Shown here: in pieces, positions 6,784 to 43,922 of the stretch
How positions within the stretch are numbered: the stretch's first letter is position 1
Layout: each line of letters begins with the position of its first letter
DNA from: an uncultured Bacilli bacterium
Lineage (GTDB): Bacteria > Bacillota_I > Bacilli_A > RF39 > UBA660
NCBI GenBank assembly: GCA_934148015.1
Contig: CAKPCU010000004.1
Location: forward strand, 10,800 to 74,799
Length of the DNA stretch: 64,000 nt
Direction: 5' to 3'
The notes under the pieces: generated by a model
What the model saw: only the letters and a program-made list of their open reading frames with translations
What the model was told of the DNA's origin: nothing
Databases searched by the model: none
Made by a program: the position numbers and the translations under genes

Positions 6784-7540
6784 AATAAATATATCACCTA
6801 TACTTTATATAGTGGTATTTTTTTCTTTAATATGTGGATTATTTAGAGAGATAATTGTATTTATATTGACGATAGTTATTCATGAATTAGGTCATGTTTT
6901 TGTATCGTATTTGTTTGGGTGGAATATTAAGAAAATTTCTTTTAATGTTTATGGAGGCTTTATTTCATATGATGAGGTTATTGATAAACCATTTATAGAA
7001 GAGTTATTAATAGCATTGGCAGGTTTTCTATTTCAAACAATATTTTTAATTTCATCTGCTTTTTTATACAAATTTAATATTATAGATGATAATATATTGT
7101 TTTTAGTTAAAAAATATTTTTTATCACTTTTTTTATTTAACTTAATACCAATTATTCCTTTAGATGGTTCTAAGATTTTAAGTGTTTTATTGAACATATT
7201 TTTTTCATATAAAAAGTCTCTTAAAATATTAAATTATATTTCTTTAGTATCATTAATTATAATATCTATTTTGATTATATATTATCATTTTACAATAGAA
7301 ATTAGTTATATAATAATATTTTCATTTTTAGTGAAAAATATAGTAGAAGGTTTTTATGAAGAAAAATATCTTTTTGCAAAGTTTTTGTTTCAAAGATATT
7401 CATTACCATCAAATTATTCAGAAAAAAATTATATTAATAATTATGATTTAGGAAAAATTAAAAGACAAAAAAATACTTATTTTTTAATTAATGGAAGATA
7501 CTTCAAAGAAGAAAATATTTTAAAGAAACTATTTGACTAA
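6764..7540 (+). CDS. spoIVFB: M50 site-2 metalloprotease (SpoIVFB-like, pro-sigma-K processing type)
   Basis: HELGH in a TM helix (VIHELGHVFVSY) and NLIPIIPLDGSKIL (NxxPxxxLDG). Position immediately upstream of rplU as in B. subtilis. Confidence 0.7.
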   Translation: MKKCLSKINISPILYIVVFFSLICGLFREIIVFILTIVIHELGHVFVSYLFGWNIKKISFNVYGGFISYDEVIDKPFIEELLIALAGFLFQTIFLISSAFLYKFNIIDDNILFLVKKYFLSLFLFNLIPIIPLDGSKILSVLLNIFFSYKKSLKILNYISLVSLIIISILIIYYHFTIEISYIIIFSFLVKNIVEGFYEEKYLFAKFLFQRYSLPSNYSEKNYINNYDLGKIKRQKNTYFLINGRYFKEENILKKLFD

Positions 7541-7559
7541 AATATGATTATATGATAAA

Positions 7560-7660
7560 CTATTAACGTTTGAATGAACTTCTTGTTCTTCAACCACACA
7601 GAAAAGGTTTAAAACATTTATATGTACCTTAATGGTGAGTCTAAGATTTTAAAAAAGGAG
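7560..7660 (+). promoter_or_regulatory. Possible L21 ribosomal-protein leader (5' UTR of rplU-prp-rpmA)
   Basis: 129-nt non-coding gap with a hairpin at 7571..7592 (TGAATGAAC..GTTCTTCA). An L21 leader is known upstream of rplU in Firmicutes, but this cannot be confirmed without a covariance model. Confidence 0.3.
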
Positions 7661-7669
7661 GAATAAAAG

Positions 7670-7969
7670 ATGAAAGCAGTTATAGAAACTGGTGGTAAAC
7701 AATACCGTGTTAGTGAAGGTTCTGTAATTTATGTTGAAAAATTAGATTGCGAAGCTGGAAAAACTTATACTTTTGATAAAGTTGTAATGGCTGATAATAA
7801 AGTTGGAACTCCATATATAAATGGTGCAACTGTTGAAGCTAAAGTTTTAAAACAAGGTAAAAATAAGAAGATAATAATCTTTAAATATTTACCTAAGAAA
7901 AGTTCTCATAAGAAACAAGGACATCGTCAACCATATACTAAGCTTGAAATTACTAAAATTAATGCTTAA
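7670..7969 (+). CDS. rplU: 50S ribosomal protein L21
   Basis: [17 protein letters not shown].. is the canonical L21 N-terminus. Strong RBS AAGGAGG. Confidence 0.95.
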
Positions 7970-7979
7970 TTGGTGATGT

Positions 7980-8282
7980 ATGATAAAAATAAAAATAAAT
8001 TATGATGATAATTTTATTAAAAGCTTTTCTATTAAAGGACATGCTAATTATGATACTATAGGAAAAGATATAGTATGTGCTTCAGTAAGTTCTATTGCTA
8101 TTTCTAGTATTAATTTAGCTTTAAGGTTTGATAAAGATTCACTTAAAGTAGTAGAAAAAGAAGGATTACTTGATGTAGAAGTTTTAAAAAAAGATAAGAT
8201 TATCAATGAAATATTTCTAAACATGGAAGATATGTTTAAGGAATTATCTCTGGATTATACAAAATACGTTAAAATTATATAG
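7980..8282 (+). CDS. prp: Ribosomal-processing cysteine protease Prp (YsxB family)
   Basis: [19 protein letters not shown] contains the conserved His and Cys. Located between rplU and rpmA. Confidence 0.9.
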
Positions 8283-8296
8283 AGGAGGTGCTTTTA

Positions 8297-8578
8297 ATGT
8301 TAAAGTTAAACATCCAATTATTTGCACACGTTAAGGCGCAAGGTTCAACTCATAACGGACGTGATAGTGAAGGTAGAAGATTAGGTGCTAAAGCTGCTGA
8401 TGGAGAATTAATAAGTGCTGGATCTATTATCTATCGTCAAAGAGGAACTAAGATTTATCCTGGAACAAACGTTGGTATGGGTAAGGATCACACATTATTC
8501 GCTAAAATTACTGGGTATGTTAAATTTGAACGCCTAGGAAGAGATAAAAAGCAAGTTAGTGTATATGAAGCTAAATAA
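8297..8578 (+). CDS. rpmA: 50S ribosomal protein L27 with N-terminal Prp-cleavable propeptide
   Basis: [10 protein letters not shown]|[25 protein letters not shown] 8297 lies 8 nt after GGAGG; the ORF-track GTG 8288 is inside the RBS. Confidence 0.95.
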
Positions 8579-8604
8579 TATCATCTTATGATGGTATTTT
8601 TTTT
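8579..8604 (+). terminator. Rho-independent terminator after rpmA
   Basis: Stem TATCATC/GATGGTA, 4-nt loop, then a T8 run. Confidence 0.6.
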
Positions 8605-8663
8605 AAATTAATATATTTTATTATTTTATTTTATATGGTAAAATTAGTTAGAGGTGATTTATT

Positions 8664-9302
8664 ATGCGTTATAATATTGTAAAAGATGCAGATGAGATTT
8701 TAAAAAATAGTACATATTTAGTAAAAAATCCTAGTGAATATAAAAATAAATGGAATACTTTATTTGCTAACAATAATCCTATTAATTTGGAACTTGGTAT
8801 GGGACGTGGTAGTTTTATTATAGAAATGGCTAAGAAAAATCCTAAAATTAATTATATAGGATTAGAACTAGATAAAAATCAAACAGCTTATGCTATTAAA
8901 ACGATAGGCAGTCAAAAGATTAATAATTTAAAAATAATTTGTGCAAGTGCAGATGATATAGTAAACTTTTTTGGAAAGGAAATAAATACTATTTATTTAA
9001 CATTTTCAGAACCATGGCCAAAAAGACATGATGCAAATAAAAGATTTACTCATGTTAATTATTTAAAATTATATGATAGAATTTTTAAGAAAAATAAACA
9101 CATAATATTAAAAACTGATAATAAAATATTATTTGCTTCAGCTCTAGAAAGTTTAAGTGATTACTGGTACATATTTGATAAGGTGAGTTTAGATTTACAT
9201 AATGATGAAAGAAAAATAGATAATGTTATGACTGATTTTGAAAAGCAATATTTTAAAGAAAGAAGACCTATATATTATCTAGAAGCTTCTTTTAAGAGTT
9301 AA
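8664..9302 (+). CDS. trmB: tRNA (guanine46-N7)-methyltransferase
   Basis: ELGMGRGSFIIEMAKKNP SAM motif and FSEPWPKRHDANKRF (the FxDPWxKxRHxKRR block). Confidence 0.85.
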   Translation: MRYNIVKDADEILKNSTYLVKNPSEYKNKWNTLFANNNPINLELGMGRGSFIIEMAKKNPKINYIGLELDKNQTAYAIKTIGSQKINNLKIICASADDIVNFFGKEINTIYLTFSEPWPKRHDANKRFTHVNYLKLYDRIFKKNKHIILKTDNKILFASALESLSDYWYIFDKVSLDLHNDERKIDNVMTDFEKQYFKERRPIYYLEASFKS

Positions 9303-28266: not shown

Positions 28267-30000
28267 ATGAACGGTGCACAAATACCAAATAATGGTAGTA
28301 ATTTAAATAATGTTAATAACATGAACAGTAGTGTAAATAGTAATAATGTTAATACATCTAATAATATAAGTAATACTCCAAATACTAACAACTTGGATAA
28401 AAGAGCACTTGAAGAACAAAAAAGAAGAGAAAATATTGCTAAAAAACAAGCTGAATTTAATAAATATGTTCAAAAAGCTAGACAAGATGAAGCTAGAAGA
28501 TTTGAAGAACAAAAGAAAATTATCGCTGAAATGCAAAAGAAACAGCTTGAAGTAAATAAAAAAGAAGAAGAAAAAAAGAAGAAAATAGCCGAGATAGATG
28601 CTAAAAGTAAGAAAAGACAAAAACAATTGGAAGAAAGTGCCTCATCTAGTAAATTTAGTGATAAACTAAAAGCTTGGTATTTAAAAGCTTCTACACCTAA
28701 ATATAATGAACTTGAACTTAAGGCTAAAAAAGCTGTTTTAGAAGAACAATTTAAAGATGATAAAAATAATTTAGCTAGATTAAAAACACCAATACTATTT
28801 AAGTATAAAGCTAAAACACCAGATGGTAAGATAGTAACTGGTACTATGGATGCACTATCTAGAGTAGATATACATTCCTTTTTAACTCAGGAAGGTTATG
28901 AAGTATATGAAATATATGCCGTTAAGAATTCTTCTAATATAAACATAATGTCATTTAAGTTTAAAATATCTAAGCTTATATTCTGCTTATCTCAGTTATC
29001 TGCTTATTTAAAAGCTGGTATTGCTCTTGCTGATGCTGTTAAGTTAATTGAAAATCAAACTAAAAGCATGAAAGAAAAGAGAGTATGGAGAGCTGTTTAT
29101 TATGATTTATCAATGGGTGATAATTTATCTTCTGCTCTTGAAAAAAGAGGTAATGCTTATCCTAAGTTACTAATTAACATGATTAAAACAGCAGAGATGA
29201 CTGGTAATTTACCTGAAACTTTAGATGATATGATAGATTATTATACTGAAACTGAAACTACTAGAAAGCAAATGATTTCAGCTTTAATGTATCCTACAAT
29301 AGTTGTTATATTCGCAATAGCTGTTATAGTATTTATGCTTATATATATAGTTCCTAGTTTTGCTGGTATATTTAAAGATATGGGAACTGATGAAATTCCA
29401 GCTATTACTACATTCTTACTTAATTTAAGTGACTTTTTAGGTAAATATATACTTCAAATATCTATAGGTGTATTTTCAGTACTTCTTATATTTACACTTT
29501 TATATAAATACTATAAACCAGTTAGAAAAGTTCTTCAAATATTTGCAATGAAACTTCCTGTAATAGGTAATATAATTATATATAATGAAGTTACAATGTT
29601 TTCTAAGACATTTGCTAACCTTTTAAATCATAATGTATTTATAACAGATTCAATAGATGTATTATCTAAAATTACATCAAACGAAGTTTATAAGAAACTA
29701 ATTCATGATACTTCTGTTAATTTAACTAAGGGTGAATCTATTTCAGCATCATTTAAAGATCACTGGGCTTTTCCTTATATAGCATACCAAATGATATTAA
29801 CTGGTGAAAAAACTGGTAGGTTAGGACAAATGATGGAAAAAGTATCACAGTATTATCAAGAACAACATAGGACTTTAGTTAACCGTTTAAAGACTTTAAT
29901 TGAGCCTATATTAATAGTTGGTCTTGCTGTTATAGTTGGTGGTATACTTCTTGCAATAGTAGTTCCAATGTTCTCATTATATGATCAAGTATCATCATAG
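28267..30000 (+). CDS. pilC: Type IV pilus/T2SS platform protein (GspF/PilC family) with ~175-aa N-terminal extension
   Basis: Two GspF repeats and three TM segments from about aa 178 (FKYKAKTPDGKIVTG..). Residues 1-177 are Asn-rich, then K/E-rich coiled coil. Confidence 0.9.
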   Translation: MNGAQIPNNGSNLNNVNNMNSSVNSNNVNTSNNISNTPNTNNLDKRALEEQKRRENIAKKQAEFNKYVQKARQDEARRFEEQKKIIAEMQKKQLEVNKKEEEKKKKIAEIDAKSKKRQKQLEESASSSKFSDKLKAWYLKASTPKYNELELKAKKAVLEEQFKDDKNNLARLKTPILFKYKAKTPDGKIVTGTMDALSRVDIHSFLTQEGYEVYEIYAVKNSSNINIMSFKFKISKLIFCLSQLSAYLKAGIALADAVKLIENQTKSMKEKRVWRAVYYDLSMGDNLSSALEKRGNAYPKLLINMIKTAEMTGNLPETLDDMIDYYTETETTRKQMISALMYPTIVVIFAIAVIVFMLIYIVPSFAGIFKDMGTDEIPAITTFLLNLSDFLGKYILQISIGVFSVLLIFTLLYKYYKPVRKVLQIFAMKLPVIGNIIIYNEVTMFSKTFANLLNHNVFITDSIDVLSKITSNEVYKKLIHDTSVNLTKGESISASFKDHWAFPYIAYQMILTGEKTGRLGQMMEKVSQYYQEQHRTLVNRLKTLIEPILIVGLAVIVGGILLAIVVPMFSLYDQVSS

Positions 30001-30889: not shown

Positions 30890-32308
30890 TTATATATCTA
30901 ACATTTCTGCATCAGAATTATTTCTTATATTACTAGGTGTTTGTTGCATATTTATATTATTATTAATCTGATTATTTAAAGTAGGAGTATTTCCTATGGC
31001 TGCATTATTATTTGTTGCTATATTAATATTAGGTACTGTATTAGTATTTGCTGCTATATTAGTAGTTCCATTATTATTTGCATTAGATGCCTTTATTTCT
31101 CCTTCTAGTACTATTTTTGTTGAAGAATCATCTAAATCTACAATTCTAAGTATTTCTTCTATAGTAGTAACATTTTGAAGTACTTTAGCTAAACCATCTT
31201 GAAGAAGAGTTTTAGTATCACCTGTATAAACAAGTTTTCTTAATTCTTCTTTAGGTACTTCATTTGCTATAGCATCTCTTATTTCTTGATTAATAACTAA
31301 TACCTCATGTATAGCGATACGACCTTTATAACCACCAACACATTCAGGACATCCTTCAGCGTAAGCAAGTTCATTTATATCTATACCTAAATTAGCTTTA
31401 ATTAGCTTTTTTTCATATTCAATAGCAGGTCTTTTTTTCATACAATGTGGACAAATTCTTCTAGCTAATTTTTGTGATACTATACCATTTAATGAACTAG
31501 CTAAAAGATAAGTTTCAACTTCCATATCAGTTAAACGTTCAATTGTATTTAATGCATTATTAGTATGAAGTGTAGATAGTACTAAGTGACCAGTAATAGA
31601 TGCTCTAACTGCTATTTTAGCTGTTTCATCATCTCTTATTTCTCCGATCATTATTATATCAGGGTCTTGTCTTAAAATAGAACGAAGTACGTTAGCAAAC
31701 GTAAGACCAATTTCACTATTAACTTGTATTTGGTTAATACCATCAATACCCATTTCAACTGGATCTTCAACGGTAACTAGATTAACTTCAGGAGTGTTAA
31801 GTAACTGTAAAAGAGAGTATACAGTAGTAGATTTACCAGAACCAGTAGCACCAGTTACTAATATAATTCCATTTGGTTCTTTAATTAAATCTTTCATTTT
31901 TCTTAAATTATCAGGAGAAAATCCTAAACTTTCAAGACCTTTAAGTGAAGCTGTATAATCAAGTATACGAATAACTATTTTTTCTCCTTCATTAGTAGGA
32001 AGAGAAGATACACGCATATCTAAATTTATATCACGAATAGTAGTTTTAATAGCACCATCTTGAGGAAGTCTAGACTCTGTAATATCCATACCAGATATTA
32101 TTTTTAATCTAGCTACTAGATTTTTTCTTATGTTTTCTGGAATAATTGCATAATCTATTAAAATACCATCTATTCTAAATCTAACCTTTATATGATCTTC
32201 ATATGGATCAAAGTGTATATCACTAGCACCAGATTCAGCAGCACTATATAATATTTCAGTAACTACATCTGTTATTGGTAATTTAGTAAAATCTATTTGT
32301 TTTAACAT
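30890..32308 (-). CDS. pilB: Type IV pilus assembly ATPase (GspE/PilB/ComGA family) with Asn-rich C-terminal tail
   Basis: Walker A GATGSGKST, Asp/His boxes, tetracysteine CPHC..CPEC. The last ~80 aa are N/T/I low complexity. Confidence 0.92.
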   Translation of the reverse strand: MLKQIDFTKLPITDVVTEILYSAAESGASDIHFDPYEDHIKVRFRIDGILIDYAIIPENIRKNLVARLKIISGMDITESRLPQDGAIKTTIRDINLDMRVSSLPTNEGEKIVIRILDYTASLKGLESLGFSPDNLRKMKDLIKEPNGIILVTGATGSGKSTTVYSLLQLLNTPEVNLVTVEDPVEMGIDGINQIQVNSEIGLTFANVLRSILRQDPDIIMIGEIRDDETAKIAVRASITGHLVLSTLHTNNALNTIERLTDMEVETYLLASSLNGIVSQKLARRICPHCMKKRPAIEYEKKLIKANLGIDINELAYAEGCPECVGGYKGRIAIHEVLVINQEIRDAIANEVPKEELRKLVYTGDTKTLLQDGLAKVLQNVTTIEEILRIVDLDDSSTKIVLEGEIKASNANNNGTTNIAANTNTVPNINIATNNNAAIGNTPTLNNQINNNINMQQTPSNIRNNSDAEMLDI

Positions 32309-39535: not shown

Positions 39536-40456
39536 ATGAAGAGAAAAAGTAATGGATTTACACTGATAGAATTATTAGCAGTAATAGTAATACTTGGTAT
39601 TATAATAACAATTGTAGTAACAAATGTAGTTAAATATATTGGAAAAGCAAGAGAAGGTGCATTTAAAGATACTTATTCTAAAGTACTTAGAGATGTAAAA
39701 AATAAAATAGCTTTAAAGAATTTAGGAGATACTACAGAAGAAGTGGAGTGTAGAGATTATTCAGAATGTGCTAGTTTATATGATGTATCAACAAATGATG
39801 TAAATCTTATAGTAACTAAAGTAAATGAAAATTACATAGTTAATATGGAAGGAAAAGGTAGCTATGCTGGTATATCAATGGAAGAATCTACTTGTCCTAA
39901 GAATTCATATTGTAGTACAAATTCTATCTCCTCAAATATTTCATCAAATGGAGAAGAAAAAGAAACTAATATAGGAAGTTTACTAGTTTTAAATGTAAAG
40001 AATAAAAATCCTATAAATTGTAGTAGTGGTGAAGCTTGTAGTAAGTATGGAGAAAAAATTACAGAAATAATATCTAGTACTGGTGGATATGCGGTAACTC
40101 AAGAGAGTGAAATAATAATATATGATAAAAATGGAAATATATTAACTACTACTGATCAAGCCAAAGCTCAAAAGTATAAGAATTTGATAAGTTTGACTAG
40201 AGGTGCAGATAATGATAAAGTTTATAATGATAATACACGTATTACATGTGATAATGAAAATGCTTATTATAAAAGAAGCTCGAAATATAATAACATTGAT
40301 GAAGTTTATTTATATAATGAGAAATTGATTAATTCCGAATATAAATATTTATATTATCTTAACGAAGATAAAACTAAAAAAACACGATTGTTTATATTTA
40401 AATGTGCTGGAAAATTTTCAAATACTCATAGTAATTATAAAGAATGGACTAGCTAG
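39536..40456 (+). CDS. Type IV pilin-like protein, 306 aa (large C-terminal domain)
   Basis: MKRKSNG|FTLIELLAVIVILGIIITIVVTNVVKYI. The N-terminal protein sequence matches the downstream cassettes but uses different codons. Confidence 0.85.
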   Translation: MKRKSNGFTLIELLAVIVILGIIITIVVTNVVKYIGKAREGAFKDTYSKVLRDVKNKIALKNLGDTTEEVECRDYSECASLYDVSTNDVNLIVTKVNENYIVNMEGKGSYAGISMEESTCPKNSYCSTNSISSNISSNGEEKETNIGSLLVLNVKNKNPINCSSGEACSKYGEKITEIISSTGGYAVTQESEIIIYDKNGNILTTTDQAKAQKYKNLISLTRGADNDKVYNDNTRITCDNENAYYKRSSKYNNIDEVYLYNEKLINSEYKYLYYLNEDKTKKTRLFIFKCAGKFSNTHSNYKEWTS

Positions 40457-40473
40457 AAAAACATAAATTAATA

Positions 40474-40501
40474 AACAGCATTTTAGTAATGTTGTTTTTT
40501 T
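40474..40501 (+). terminator. Rho-independent terminator after the 306-aa pilin gene
   Basis: AACAGCAT-TTTAGTA-ATGTTGTT (one G-T pair) followed by T7. It insulates cassette A from upstream transcription. Confidence 0.6.
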
Positions 40502-40521
40502 GTACTTTCTTTTCTTAATTC

Positions 40522-40690
40522 TATTTTTTAAGCAACTATCTTAAGGATAAAAAGTGTTTAAAAAATAAAAGAAAGAAGGAAAAAATTATGAAAAAAAATA
40601 AAAAAGGTTTTACTTTAATTGAATTACTAGCTGTTATTGTTATACTTGGTATTATTATTACTATCGTTGTAAGTAACGTTGTTAAGTATA
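40522..40690 (+). repeat. Pilin 5' module copy L1 (leader + RBS + codons 1-34)
   Basis: ..AAGCAACTATCTTAAGGATAAAAAGTGTTTAAAAAATAAAAGAAAGAAGGAAAAAATTATGAAAAAAAATAAAAAAGGTTTTACTTTAATTGAATTACTAGCTGTTATTGTTATACTTGGTATTATTATTAC... Near-identical to L2-L4. The inner end is approximate. Confidence 0.9.
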
Positions 40691-41085
40691 TTAATAAAGC
40701 AAGAAAGGGTTCTTATGTTGATGCATACAAGGTTTTAGTAAAAGATATGCAAACACAATTAATGGCTAATGAGATGGACAATGGAACAGCTAGTTTAGCG
40801 ATATGTAATGATAATAGTACGGTTTCTGAAATTAAAAAACGTGTAAATAAAAATGATTATAAGGGTTCTTATAAAGAAGAAACTTTAAAAATGCAAGTAG
40901 AAGCATGGAAAACTGGTGAAAAATTAAATGGGTACACTGTTACTATTAATCCGGGAAGTAATTTTAGTTCTGTAACTAGTATTACATGTCCTGTTGTTAG
41001 TTCTTCGGGTGTTAAAAGTGCTTGTGCTGGAGCTGAAATTAGAATACACTTAGCATTAGATGGTACTATAACAAGTGGAAGATAA
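40588..41085 (+). CDS. Type IV pilin, variant cassette A (165 aa)
   Basis: MKKNKKG|FTLIELLAVIVILGIIITIVVSNVVKY constant N-terminus. Body about 90% identical to cassette A'. Confidence 0.9.
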   Translation: MKKNKKGFTLIELLAVIVILGIIITIVVSNVVKYINKARKGSYVDAYKVLVKDMQTQLMANEMDNGTASLAICNDNSTVSEIKKRVNKNDYKGSYKEETLKMQVEAWKTGEKLNGYTVTINPGSNFSSVTSITCPVVSSSGVKSACAGAEIRIHLALDGTITSGR

Positions 41086-41086
41086 T

Positions 41087-41132
41087 TAAAAAAATACTAT
41101 AATGAAGATCAATATTTCATTATAGTATTTTT
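41087..41132. terminator. Bidirectional terminator T1 shared by cassettes A and B
   Basis: A run, perfect 13-bp stem ATACTATAATGAA/TTCATTATAGTAT, loop GATCAATAT, T run. Same element as 43338..43383. Confidence 0.8.
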
Positions 41133-41143
41133 ATTTGTGTTTC

Positions 41144-41611
41144 TTATTCAGAATCTTTTAATTCTCCTTCTGGACTCATATACAAAATTACTGTGCCTTT
41201 AGCTATAGGACTACCATTACCACATTTCGCATGATTAGGACAATATTTTCCACTAATGTCTAAATCTTTAAAACTATTTGTACCTTTTATTGTAATTACA
41301 TGATTACTTTTACCAGTTTGAACAGCAGCAATTATTATATCCATGTTTGATGAATCATAATCATAGATTCCTTTGCATGCAGTAGCTGTAGTACATGTTG
41401 TTACAGTTCCATCGCCTCCTTCAACTGCTTCTGACATAAGGGAATTTTGAACATTTTTAACAAATACACCAACTGCATCTTTATAAGAACCCTGCCTAGC
41501 TTGTTTAACATACTTAACAACATTACTTACAACAATAGTAATAATAATACCAAGTATAACAATAACAGCTAGTAATTCAATTAAAGTAAAACCTTTTTTA
41601 TTTTTTTTCAT
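41144..41611 (-). CDS. Type IV pilin, variant cassette B (155 aa)
   Basis: Same 34-aa N-terminus; distinct C-terminal body related to B' (roughly half the residues shared by eye). Confidence 0.9.
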   Translation of the reverse strand: MKKNKKGFTLIELLAVIVILGIIITIVVSNVVKYVKQARQGSYKDAVGVFVKNVQNSLMSEAVEGGDGTVTTCTTATACKGIYDYDSSNMDIIIAAVQTGKSNHVITIKGTNSFKDLDISGKYCPNHAKCGNGSPIAKGTVILYMSPEGELKDSE

Positions 41612-41673
41612 ATTTTTTTCCTTCTTTCTTTTATTTTTTAAACACTTTTTATCCTTAAGATAGTTACTTAAAT
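41509..41673 (-). repeat. Pilin 5' module copy L2 (inverted relative to L1 and L3)
   Basis: The reverse complement reads TTTAAGTAACTATCTTAAGGATAAAAAGTGTTTAAAAAATAAAAGAAAGAAGGAAAAAAATATGAAAAAAAATAAAAAAGG... The inner end is approximate. Confidence 0.9.
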
Positions 41674-41683
41674 TTTATATAAT
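41655..41683 (+). promoter_or_regulatory. Candidate promoter of the recombinase gene, straddling the L2 boundary
   Basis: TTAAGA (inside repeat L2)-N17-TATAAT (unique DNA), 28 nt upstream of the int ATG. Confidence 0.4.
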
Positions 41684-41710
41684 AGCTTCCTAGAAAGGAG
41701 CAAATACTAT

Positions 41711-42649
41711 ATGTTAATAATTAAAAGAATAAAATATAAAGATTATTTATATGAATGGTTAATTAATAAAAAAAGTTTTATTAAAGAATCAACTTATGCA
41801 AATTATTCTAATATTGTATTTAGTTATATAACACCTAAACTTGGTAATTATTATATAAGTGAATTAAATAATAAAATAATACAAGATTATATATTATATC
41901 TACATAATACTAAAGGATTAGCGATTAAAACAATAAAGGATATAATTATGATAGTAAAAGAAAGTATAAAGTGTGCTATTAATAATAATATAATTAAAAA
42001 TTTTGATTTAAAATTTAACTATCCTAAAAGTAATAATATTAATCATATGTATGTATTAACAAAAAGAGAACAAAATATATTAATGGAATATGTATTAAAT
42101 AACATTAATAATAAAAGTATAGGTATTTTAATATCATTACTTTTAGGTATTAGAATTGGAGAATTATGTGCATTAAAGTGGGAAGATATAGACTTTAAAA
42201 AGAAAATATTACATGTTAATAAAACTTTACAAAGAATATATATAAAAGACATAGATAAAAATTTATCTAAGGTTATTGTATCTCTTCCTAAAACTAACAG
42301 CTCTAATAGGGATATTCCAATAAATAAAGAATTATTAGATATACTTAAAACATTAAAAACTAATAAAGAAGATTATATATTAACTGGAAATAATAAAAAT
42401 ACGGAACCTAGAGTATATAGAAGTTATTTTAATACAGTTTTAAAAAAGAATAGTATAAAACGTATTAAGTTTCATTCACTTAGACATACGTTTGCAACTA
42501 ATTGTATATCTCTTGGAATAGATTATAAAACTGTAAGTGAACTATTAGGACATTCTAACATAAATATCACTTTAAATTTATATGTACATCCAAGATTATC
42601 TCAAAAGAAAAAATGTATAGAAAAAATATATAAAAATGTTATTAAATAA
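41711..42649 (+). CDS. Tyrosine site-specific recombinase (phage-integrase/Xer family)
   Basis: N-terminal SAM-like core-binding domain. Catalytic signature R (GIRIGELCALKWEDID), HSLRHTFAT (HxxR), LGHSNINITLNLYVH (H..Y). Confidence 0.9.
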   Translation: MLIIKRIKYKDYLYEWLINKKSFIKESTYANYSNIVFSYITPKLGNYYISELNNKIIQDYILYLHNTKGLAIKTIKDIIMIVKESIKCAINNNIIKNFDLKFNYPKSNNINHMYVLTKREQNILMEYVLNNINNKSIGILISLLLGIRIGELCALKWEDIDFKKKILHVNKTLQRIYIKDIDKNLSKVIVSLPKTNSSNRDIPINKELLDILKTLKTNKEDYILTGNNKNTEPRVYRSYFNTVLKKNSIKRIKFHSLRHTFATNCISLGIDYKTVSELLGHSNINITLNLYVHPRLSQKKKCIEKIYKNVIK

Positions 42650-42690
42650 CGTAAAATTTACGTAAAATATATAATAAAAATTCAAACTAA

Positions 42691-42719
42691 TTGACAATGA
42701 AATTTATTGATGATATTAT
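42691..42719 (+). promoter_or_regulatory. Near-consensus SigA promoter inside the central segment, currently reading into cassette B'
   Basis: TTGACA (42691-42696)-N17-TATTAT (42714-42719). About 150 nt upstream of the B' ATG. Confidence 0.6.
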
Positions 42720-42807
42720 TAAATCAGAATATAAAGGAGGCGAGATTTGAAGTATAAGTTTTGTTTAATTAAGACAAAATAAATTAAATGGTTAACACAC
42801 ATATATC

Positions 42808-42972
42808 TTTAAGTAACTATCTTAAGGATAAAAAGTGTTTAAAAAATAAAAGAAAGAAGGAAAAAATTATGAAAAAAAATAAAAAAGGTTTTACTTTAAT
42901 TGAATTACTAGCTGTTATTGTTATACTTGGTATTATTATTACCATTGTTGTAAGTAATGTTGTTAAGTATAT
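42808..42972 (+). repeat. Pilin 5' module copy L3
   Basis: TTTAAGTAACTATCTTAAGGATAAAAAGTGTTTAAAAAATAAAAGAAAGAAGGAAAAAATTATGAAAAAAAATAAAAAAGG... The inner end is approximate. Confidence 0.9.
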
Positions 42973-43336
42973 AAGTCAATCAAAACAAGGTGCCTTTAAA
43001 GATGCAGTTGGTGTATTTATAAAGAATACACAAACCCAAGTACTGGCTTCTGATATAAGTGGTATAGGTAGTATGACAACATGTACTAAAAATTCTGAGT
43101 GTAAAAGTAAATATCAGTATGATACAGCGAATATGGATATAACAGTAAGTCAAAATACTGGTAAAAACTATAAAATAGTTATAACAGGAATAGGTGGTTT
43201 TAATAATGTTGATATGGCTGAAACAGATAAATATGGTAATAAAAAATATTGTCCAAAAGAAGCTGCCGAGTGTACTAAGAATGGTGTAATCACTTTATAT
43301 ATGAATAGCGACGCTGAAATAAAAGAAGCTGAATAA
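42869..43336 (+). CDS. Type IV pilin, variant cassette B' (155 aa)
   Basis: ATG 42869 sits behind the shared RBS. The ORF-track start at 42788 merely reads through the leader module. Same 34-aa N-terminus. Confidence 0.9.
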   Translation: MKKNKKGFTLIELLAVIVILGIIITIVVSNVVKYISQSKQGAFKDAVGVFIKNTQTQVLASDISGIGSMTTCTKNSECKSKYQYDTANMDITVSQNTGKNYKIVITGIGGFNNVDMAETDKYGNKKYCPKEAAECTKNGVITLYMNSDAEIKEAE

Positions 43337-43337
43337 T

Positions 43338-43383
43338 AAAAATACTATAATGAAGATCAATATTTCATTATAGTATTTTTTTT
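43338..43383. terminator. Bidirectional terminator T2 shared by cassettes B' and A'
   Basis: Identical 13-bp stem and loop to T1, in the same absolute orientation. Confidence 0.8.
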
Positions 43384-43385
43384 AA

Positions 43386-43856
43386 TTATCTTCCACTTGT
43401 TATAGTACCATCTAATGCTAAGTGTATTTTAATTTCAGCCCCAGAACAAGCATCTTCAACAGGACATGTAATACTAGTTACAGAACTAAAATTACTTCCT
43501 GGATTAATAGTAACAGTGTACCCATTTAATTTTTCACCGGTTTTCCATTCTTCTACTTGCATTTTTAAAGTTTCTTCTTTATAAGAACCCTTATAATCAT
43601 CTTCAACTACACATTTTTTAGTTGCCTCATTATCATTACATGTCACTAAACTAGCTGTTCCATTGTCCATCTCATTAGCCATTAATTGTGTTTGCATATC
43701 TTTTACTAAAACCTTGTATGCATCAACATAAGAACCCTTTCTTGCTTTATTAATATACTTAACAACGTTACTTACAACGATAGTAATAATAATACCAAGT
43801 ATAACAATAACAGCTAGTAATTCAATTAAAGTAAAACCTTTTTTATTTTTTTTCAT
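43386..43856 (-). CDS. Type IV pilin, variant cassette A' (156 aa)
   Basis: First 70 aa identical to cassette A. Differs in two short patches only. Confidence 0.9.
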   Translation of the reverse strand: MKKNKKGFTLIELLAVIVILGIIITIVVSNVVKYINKARKGSYVDAYKVLVKDMQTQLMANEMDNGTASLVTCNDNEATKKCVVEDDYKGSYKEETLKMQVEEWKTGEKLNGYTVTINPGSNFSSVTSITCPVEDACSGAEIKIHLALDGTITSGR

Positions 43857-43922
43857 AATTTTTTCCTTCTTTCTTTTATTTTTTAAACACTTTTTATCCT
43901 TAAGATAGTTGCTTAAAAAATA
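43754..43922 (-). repeat. Pilin 5' module copy L4 (inverted relative to L1 and L3)
   Basis: Reverse complement is identical to L1 from TATTTTTTAAGCAACTATC.. through codon 34 and beyond. The inner end is approximate. Confidence 0.9.

Follow-up and report, generated by a model that had tools for sequence, protein, structure and literature searches.

Four complete type IV pilin genes around a tyrosine recombinase gene, in the chromosome of an uncultured Bacilli bacterium (RF39; UBA660), are very probably the alternative genes of a multi-inversion switch, similar to a shufflon, in which one promoter is moved between genes. They lie in a stretch of 64,000 nucleotides (nt) of contig CAKPCU010000004.1 (GenBank assembly GCA_934148015.1, positions 10,800 to 74,799), referred to here as the window. 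The genes, or cassettes, point toward each other in two pairs, A> <B and C> <D, on either side of the recombinase gene, and the order of the locus is upA - site - A> ter <B - site - recombinase> promoter> - site - C> ter <D - site - upD, where upA and upD are the unique DNA just beyond the outermost repeats, on the side of a neighboring 306-amino-acid (aa) pilin gene and on the side of nfo, respectively. An earlier note on this DNA was concerned with positions 39536-40690, an interval limited to the 306-aa pilin gene and the beginning of cassette A; the feature as a whole extends over 39536-43917.

Four pilin cassettes with a common 5′ block

Cassette A (40588-41085, plus strand) is a complete open reading frame (ORF) of 165 aa with its own ribosome-binding site. 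Cassettes B (41144-41611, minus strand) and C (42869-43336, plus strand) encode 155 aa each, and D (43386-43856, minus strand) encodes 156 aa; C is the promoter-proximal cassette in the window arrangement. Alignment and a codon table show that all four have in common a non-coding leader (61 nt, -61 to -1) and the first 34 codons (102 nt). The resulting repeat of 163 nt is thus present in four copies, at 40527-40689 (A, plus strand), 41510-41672 (B, minus), 42808-42970 (C, plus) and 43755-43917 (D, minus), and the pairs A/B, A/D, C/B and C/D are in inverted relation. The earlier note had described the N-termini as nucleotide-identical, with the same codons and about 60 nt of leader in all four cassettes. 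The sharing is as described, while the identity is near rather than strict, since five of the 163 sites vary in the five-way alignment. At -55, cassettes A and D have a C and cassettes B and C a T. Cassette B alone has an A at -2, and cassette C alone has ACC as codon 25, while cassettes A and D are set apart by ATC as codon 26 and AAC as codon 30. Three synonymous sites differ among the cassettes, grouping A with D and B with C, and any two cassettes match at 99-102 of the 102 nt of codons 1-34.

Would genes for the same peptide be this similar by chance? Under the window's own codon usage, two independent genes for one peptide should share about 14.3 of 28 codons, and the probability of sharing 25 or more is 1.5e-5 per pair. 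The cassettes share 25-28 of the 28. The similarity ends at a sharp boundary at codon 35: the variable parts of A/D, B and C have only 19-36% protein identity, versus 97-100% identity in the 163-nt 5′ block. A and D are more closely related, with 99% identity across 294 nt at the 5′ end and 89% protein identity in the variable part (codon 35 to the end).

The 306-aa type IV pilin-like gene (39536-40456, plus strand) is outside the switch. Between codons 7 and 34 it has the same residue as the cassettes at 27 of 28 positions, and 15-17 of those 27 codons differ; the 10-12 codons that it shares with them are the random expectation. Of the 70 nt upstream of the gene, 23-25 match the cassette leader, a random level for this base composition. 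The earlier claims that more than half of the codons of this gene differ synonymously from those of the cassettes, and that its upstream region is unrelated, are thus borne out by the alignment of all five 5′ regions. As the sole pilin gene here outside the repeat set, it would be held only by protein-level selection on the packing of the helix into the pilus core, which would leave its synonymous sites free to become randomized. To judge from type IV pilus structure, the helix is presumably retained because all pilins must pack into one filament core. (The idea that the 306-aa pilin was selected to avoid homology to the cassettes found no support, since both its identity to them, 76 of 102 nt, and its longest exact run, 14 nt, fall within the distribution of random synonymous recodings.) The two kinds of gene also have different codon styles: in the N-terminal helix (39554-39637 in the 306-aa gene, 40606-40689 and copies B, C and D in the cassettes), third positions are 19 A and 8 T in the former, and 6 A and 19-21 T in the latter, against an average of 41% A and 47% T in the genes of the window. 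The A-ending style is retained in the orthologue of the 306-aa pilin (4268+) in the sister species locus L011, described below.

All five pilin genes match PF07963 and TIGR02532 above cut-off. Their N-terminus, MKKNKKG/FTLIELL, is that of a type IV pilin with a class III signal peptide, having a short basic leader, G-1/F+1/E+5 and a hydrophobic alpha1-N helix. Genes for a PilD-like A24 prepilin peptidase, a T2SSE assembly ATPase and a T2SSF platform protein are found at 28-32 kb of the window. (Long tails of low complexity, rich in Asn, are present on the PilC-like and PilB-like proteins, at window positions 28267-28400 and 30890-31100, in keeping with the extreme guanine plus cytosine (GC) content of the genome, 25.6%.) The genes flanking the locus are housekeeping genes (polC, an rsmD-like gene, nfo and ffh), so the locus is chromosomal and not a mobile element.

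Natural rearrangements and the site of exchange

A look-up of the exact recombinase and pilin proteins in public assemblies yielded contigs of the same strain from independently assembled human-gut metagenomes of about 21 samples, Hadza samples among them. The window arrangement predominates among them, and there are three kinds of variants, each made up of segments 100% identical to the window. In the first, contig L008, the order is D> <C rec> P> B> <A <P306 (P306 being the 306-aa pilin gene and P the promoter): the recombinase-promoter module is inverted between repeats B and C, and the promoter faces B. The promoter-side leader in L008 has the -2 variant of B, and the exchange must therefore have taken place upstream of -2. 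The second kind, L092/L111 (ERZ27287105 k141_438131), has the order P306> D> <C nfo>, that is, upA-D> <C-upD. Its nfo-side junction retains the -55 C of the flank together with the codon-25 ACC of cassette C, placing the exchange downstream of -55. Throughout the approximately 21 samples, -55 always goes with the flank and -2 always with the gene, so that the site-specific crossover is located in the leader, between -54 and -3. The informative junctions of L008 and L092 are less than 141 nt long and the contigs are k141 assemblies (k being read from the contig names), which argues that real reads carry these junctions. L092/L111 have no A, B, recombinase or promoter. Either direct sites have recombined to leave a real, locked deletion, or the assembler took a shortcut across the 294-nt repeat of A and D.

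The third kind is represented by L124 (1806-2637) and L125 (1175-1954), from two separate samples and, as their contig names suggest, different assemblers. These read nfo< D> terAB <B, with D placed tail-to-tail with B through the A-type terminator. Such an arrangement cannot be obtained by exchange at the leader sites and points instead to homologous recombination, in the form of an inversion of the entire interior, with exchange in the stretch of approximately 60 nt (3′ ends plus terminator) over which A and D are identical. With four repeat copies, an embedded recombinase and three kinds of isomers in independent assemblies, the locus is a multi-inversion system, or a shufflon in the broad sense. 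A scan of JGI metagenome contigs for the promoter-side junction gave one contig only, L126 (OIZL01026004.1, 1,245 nt), consisting of the recombinase-promoter module alone, and no further isomers. Dozens of homologous recombinases are likewise found on contigs of about 1.13-1.25 kb, which hold nothing but the recombinase module and break off within the repeats, a recurrent assembly signature that would be expected of invertible segments.

The presumed invertase is a 312-aa tyrosine recombinase (41711-42649, plus strand) that matches PF00589 (2.6e-28) and the N-terminal SAM-like family PF14659. Residues R148, K194, H255, R258, H281 and Y291, the catalytic set of the tyrosine recombinases, are invariant in an alignment with 13 homologues. 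The core of a tyrosine-recombinase site usually consists of two short inverted elements around a 7-nt spacer, and a candidate for such a core, TTAAG-N7-CTTAAGGAT(A), is found at the outer edge of the repeat in all seven Bacilli-type pilin loci. Copy A in the window reads TTTAAG-CAACTAT-CTTAAGGAT (40527-40548), and the candidate cores of B, C and D are at 41651-41672, 42808-42829 and 43896-43917, respectively. The mapped crossover interval starts inside this motif. In relatives flanked by hsdS genes, a CTTAAGGAC motif is found at the equivalent position, at the start of the 5′ repeat, and AAACTTAAGGAC at that position downstream of the promoter 3′ of the recombinase gene; the Ruminococcus loci have CTCCTTAA-N-TTAAGGAG instead. 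The earlier view of the shared modules as active recombination sites therefore applies to the leader, which holds the mapped crossovers, but not to the constant N-terminal codons. The data support a coding N-terminus that is homogenized sequence beside the crossover site, not the site itself. (A scheme of two nested switches, in which C or T at -55 would be a difference in the crossover spacer creating two compatible pairs of sites, was rejected: -55 always stays with the flank, and at the nfo-side junction of L092 cassette C is found next to a C-type flank.)

A strong sigma-70-type promoter is predicted at 42691-42719 (plus strand; TTGACA-17-TATTAT with an extended TG), matching the consensus at 11 of 12 positions, the best of 36 sites. 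It is the only strong promoter predicted in 4.8 kb, sits between the recombinase stop codon and the C leader, facing C, and is inside the segment that is inverted in L008; in the window arrangement, C is the only cassette with a recognizable promoter. The related locus L035 has an equivalent TTGACA-17-TATCAT at the same position. The recombinase gene may have a promoter of its own at 41655-41683 (plus strand; 10 of 12 consensus positions), with a predicted -35 element, TTAAGA, inside the recombination-site motif and a -10 element, TATAAT, in unique DNA. A -10-like box is conserved at this position across the related pilin loci. Because the two elements are divided in this way, inversion would rebuild the recombinase promoter from whichever repeat copy adjoins it.

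A default, GC-demanding scan of the locus returned no terminators, as the stems in this 25% GC genome have fewer than three G-C pairs, and terminators were therefore identified by RNA folding. Between the convergent cassettes are predicted bidirectional, AU-rich terminator hairpins of 17-18 bp with A and U runs on either side, at 41090-41132 for A/B (z = -4.3 and -6.0 on the two strands) and at 43338-43380 for C/D (z = -6.2 and -5.9). A further hairpin with a U7 run after the 306-aa pilin gene (40474-40501, plus strand, from the RNA fold of 40450-40590) is probably an intrinsic terminator that insulates cassette A. In view of this hairpin, expression of cassette A by read-through from the 306-aa pilin was considered unlikely.

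How might such a switch operate? The recombinase would exchange DNA at the leader site between any two oppositely oriented copies, and the single strong promoter would travel on the recombinase module. The window would then represent the state in which C is ON. A flip of the recombinase-promoter module would turn B ON, which is the arrangement found in L008, and a flip of the C-D block would turn D ON, as with the block inversion found in L092; a second inversion, of the A-B block, would be required to turn A ON. The hairpins between the convergent genes and after the 306-aa pilin would probably keep the other three cassettes silent, so that only the promoter-proximal gene is expressed. The biological role could be antigenic, adhesive or phage-receptor variation of the pilus.

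Homogenization of the 5′ ends

Site-specific exchange is conservative and reciprocal and copies no sequence. The identity of the approximately 110 nt of repeat 3′ of the crossover, comprising the ribosome-binding site and the constant helix codons, thus needs another cause, most likely gene conversion or homologous exchange, by which this part would be kept identical. Exchange among the 160-290-nt repeats is indicated by chimeric haplotypes, by the exchange of A/D 3′ ends, and by homogenization within genomes combined with divergence between them. A chimera of this kind is the cassette on the P306 side of L092, which within its coding N-terminus has the A-type codon 18 (ATT) and the D-type codon 30.

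The comparison between genomes comes from a profile search with the recombinase, which yielded 80 loci from metagenome-assembled genomes (MAGs) of uncultured gut Bacilli, "Tenericutes" and Clostridia. Ten of these have divergent pilin genes on both sides of the recombinase, including L011, from a sister species, whose recombinase is 89% identical to that of the window, L035, L038, L064 (Clostridium sp. CAG:594), L066, L069 and the Ruminococcus MAGs L079, L087 and L089. In eight of the ten, the cassettes beside the recombinase have 0-3 differences in the 28 codons that follow the cleavage site; the comparison was over 17-26 of these codons in L011 and over all 28 in the other loci. Between species, by contrast, 7-13 of about 26 codons for the same peptide are different. 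The pilins that are not cassettes (265 aa in L011, 258 and 274 aa in L064) behave like the 306-aa pilin, differing from the cassettes at 11-19 of 17-27 same-residue codons. All four window cassettes are set apart from all three L011 cassettes by a 4-nt indel in the leader and by CTA versus CTT at Leu14, even though cassette C and the 149-aa cassette of L011 are clear orthologues, with 80% identity in the variable part (22-36% for paralogues). As far as sequence comparison goes, likeness within a genome exceeds likeness between genomes, which is concerted evolution of the repeats, with L035 and L087 as exceptions. The modules thus co-evolve across related genomes, while the non-cassette pilins drift. 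This, together with the rearranged contigs that have an identical recombinase (L008, L092/L111 and L124/L125), supports the earlier argument that identity at synonymous and untranslated sites implies ongoing recombination or gene conversion between the modules.

The L011 locus (CAKPIS010000011.1, 1-6100) occupies the same chromosomal slot, from the rsmD-like gene to nfo, and has three cassettes and a long pilin on the nfo side. Its repeats are only 77-88% identical and have the variant core motifs CTTAGGGAT and CTTAATGAT; this switch may be decaying.

Direct selection on the DNA or RNA of the whole 163 nt, for binding of the recombinase or an accessory factor, as a regulatory 5′ untranslated region (UTR) or for translation initiation, could in principle produce the same identity without any gene conversion. 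It would account for the conservation of the outer leader motif across species and for the use of the leader as the -35 element of the predicted recombinase promoter, and a common ribosome-binding site and early coding region would equalize the expression of the alternatives. As an explanation for the whole block it is nevertheless unlikely, for the interspecies codon differences mean that no intrinsic constraint acts on the synonymous sites, no structure is predicted for the leader RNA (z = +0.68), and the chimeric haplotypes and the 3′-end exchange show that homologous exchange between copies does occur.

A recent duplication of the cassettes, with exchange over and the identity now decaying, is less likely still. 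A and D, being alike over their full length, are what such a duplication would leave behind. On the other hand, the variable parts of A/D, B and C are far too different for the 5′ block that they share, with the abrupt edge at codon 35; the same pattern recurs in at least eight other species with mutually different repeats, and cassette C has an orthologous variable part in L011 but a 5′ block specific to the window. That metagenome assembly created the identity and the isomers, through collapsed repeats or chimeric paths, is very improbable: many contigs do end inside repeats (L004, L005, L099 and L126) and L092 may hold a shortcut through the A/D repeat, but more than 15 independent assemblies, from what the contig names suggest are at least two assemblers, reproduce the cassette-specific variants, the informative L008 and L092 junctions each fall within one 141-mer, and L124 and L125 cross an exact repeat of only 43 nt.

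Several points weigh against an active pilin switch with continuing homogenization. The isomers were recovered from different metagenome samples, and they may reflect differences fixed between strains instead of rapid switching. The crossover interval is defined by two junctions, one of them from L092, which lacks the recombinase region and calls for two events or for a shortcut of the assembler across the A/D repeat. Promoters and terminators are predicted from consensus matches or RNA folds. Nor is homogenization universal, as the L035 and L087 cassettes show 7-10 synonymous differences, and only two events underlie the differences that are fixed between the species of the window and that of L011.

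A recombinase module with possibly several targets, and its relation to known switches

The recombinase belongs to a lineage that appears to serve other genes as well. Its nearest relatives, at about 65% identity, are located between divergent hsdS genes in MAGs of uncultured gut Bacilli, with the same rec> promoter> layout. Among the 80 loci, hsdS adjoins the recombinase in 42, 32 of which have divergent hsdS genes on both sides; further repeats are present inside hsdS in L013, L019 and about 40 other loci of the family. In these relatives, the same recombinase module appears to drive the switching of restriction specificity. The remaining loci have other neighbors, including very large secreted proteins. 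In L058/L059 (663-5843), L074 (7229-11482) and L068/L072 (about 7010-8690), the neighbors of the recombinase are very large proteins, either secreted or on the cell surface (1,726 and 1,417 aa), or 550-aa proteins with a signal peptide, which are possibly further kinds of switched targets. No hsdM or hsdR is found near the window locus, and its flanking genes are pilins, so it is not an hsdS inversion system.

These observations slightly favor the idea of a portable flip module, made up of a tyrosine recombinase gene with an outward promoter, TTAAG-N7-CTTAAGGA sites in the 5′ UTRs of the targets and a recombinase -35 element built into the site, which would have been recruited in uncultured gut Firmicutes to at least two unrelated targets: hsdS, complete type IV pilins, and possibly large surface proteins. 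In the window it would have been expanded to one promoter and four mutually exclusive pilins, with site-specific exchange doing the switching and homology-driven conversion keeping the 5′ ends interchangeable. Site-specific and homologous recombination would have separate tasks within one locus. The locus also ties pilin variation to the recombinase lineage behind phase-variable restriction systems. Type IV pili function in adhesion, DNA uptake and motility, and are phage receptors and immune targets. A heritable and reversible choice of four pilins would give a genome-reduced bacterium of the human gut, present in the Hadza and other cohorts, the kind of surface variation known from pathogens. 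Loci of this type would also account for recurring contig breaks and for the orphan recombinase contigs of about 1.1-1.2 kb in gut metagenomes.

If this is correct, it would be the first described inversion-based pilin variation in Gram-positive-type bacteria. Literature searches found no published pilin inversion switch in Firmicutes, Clostridia or RF39. An enrichment of the product annotation 'Pilin', along with others, in predicted inversion targets is listed by Milman et al. 2023 (PMC9881135), where no such locus is described.

How does the locus compare with known switches? Promoter inversion by a tyrosine recombinase, with the promoter between inverted repeats, is seen in E. coli fimS (FimB/FimE) and the invertons of Bacteroides and C. 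difficile (PMC5903667, PMC11892184), and the predicted promoter here would be flipped in a similar way. Those are ON/OFF switches with short repeats, whereas here the promoter would travel with the recombinase gene and toggle between genes (ON/ON), and additional gene-pair blocks are also invertible. The pilin locus also resembles the phase-variable hsdS inversion loci of type I restriction-modification systems that have an embedded tyrosine recombinase, such as S. pneumoniae SpnD39III/ivr (CreX/PsrA; PMC4948785). Mycoplasma pulmonis hsd is another of these loci. Long coding inverted repeats are kept identical in them, as in the window. The hsdS loci, however, swap half-gene target-recognition domains and produce chimeras; here, the targets are complete pilin genes, the mapped crossover is in the 5′ UTR, and whole proteins are swapped. 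On the sequence evidence, the window locus appears to share with the hsdS switching systems only the recombinase lineage and the site motif.

The Mycoplasma pulmonis vsa (HvsR) and Bacteroides SusC/SusD shufflons have one expression site and several silent alternatives of a surface protein, selected by site-specific inversion in a conserved 5′ region. The silent vsa genes lack a 5′ end and promoter, whereas every cassette in the window is a complete ORF with a leader and ribosome-binding site; the protein family is different as well. Among pilin systems, the tfpQ/tfpI switch of Moraxella bovis and M. lacunata is operated by Piv, a DEDD, transposase-like recombinase and not a tyrosine recombinase. 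As summarized in PMC5903667 (citing Marrs et al. 1988), inversion there chooses the expressed type IV pilin, and the constant N-terminal region is common to the alternatives, as it is here. The Moraxella switch has two genes rather than four, a crossover in the coding region, and a promoter and N-terminus fixed outside the inverted segment. The shufflon of R64/IncI plasmids (Rci, sfx repeats, PilV; PMC9045228 and references in PMC9881135) likewise combines a tyrosine recombinase with multiple invertible segments and alternative type IV pilin variants. There, a single minor pilin, which is the tip adhesin, has a fixed N-terminal exon that receives alternative C-terminal segments by exchange at short sfx sites on a conjugative plasmid. 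In the window, on the other hand, four full-length chromosomal genes of major-pilin size, with their own ribosome-binding sites, would compete for one mobile promoter; the movement of entire ORFs through a 5′ UTR crossover (-54 to -3) means that this is not a shufflon of the R64 type. The locus is thus distinct from the known pilin systems in its exchange of complete genes instead of C-terminal segments, in the position of the crossover within the 5′ UTR, in a mobile element made up of the promoter and the recombinase gene, and in a recombinase from the lineage associated with hsdS switching.

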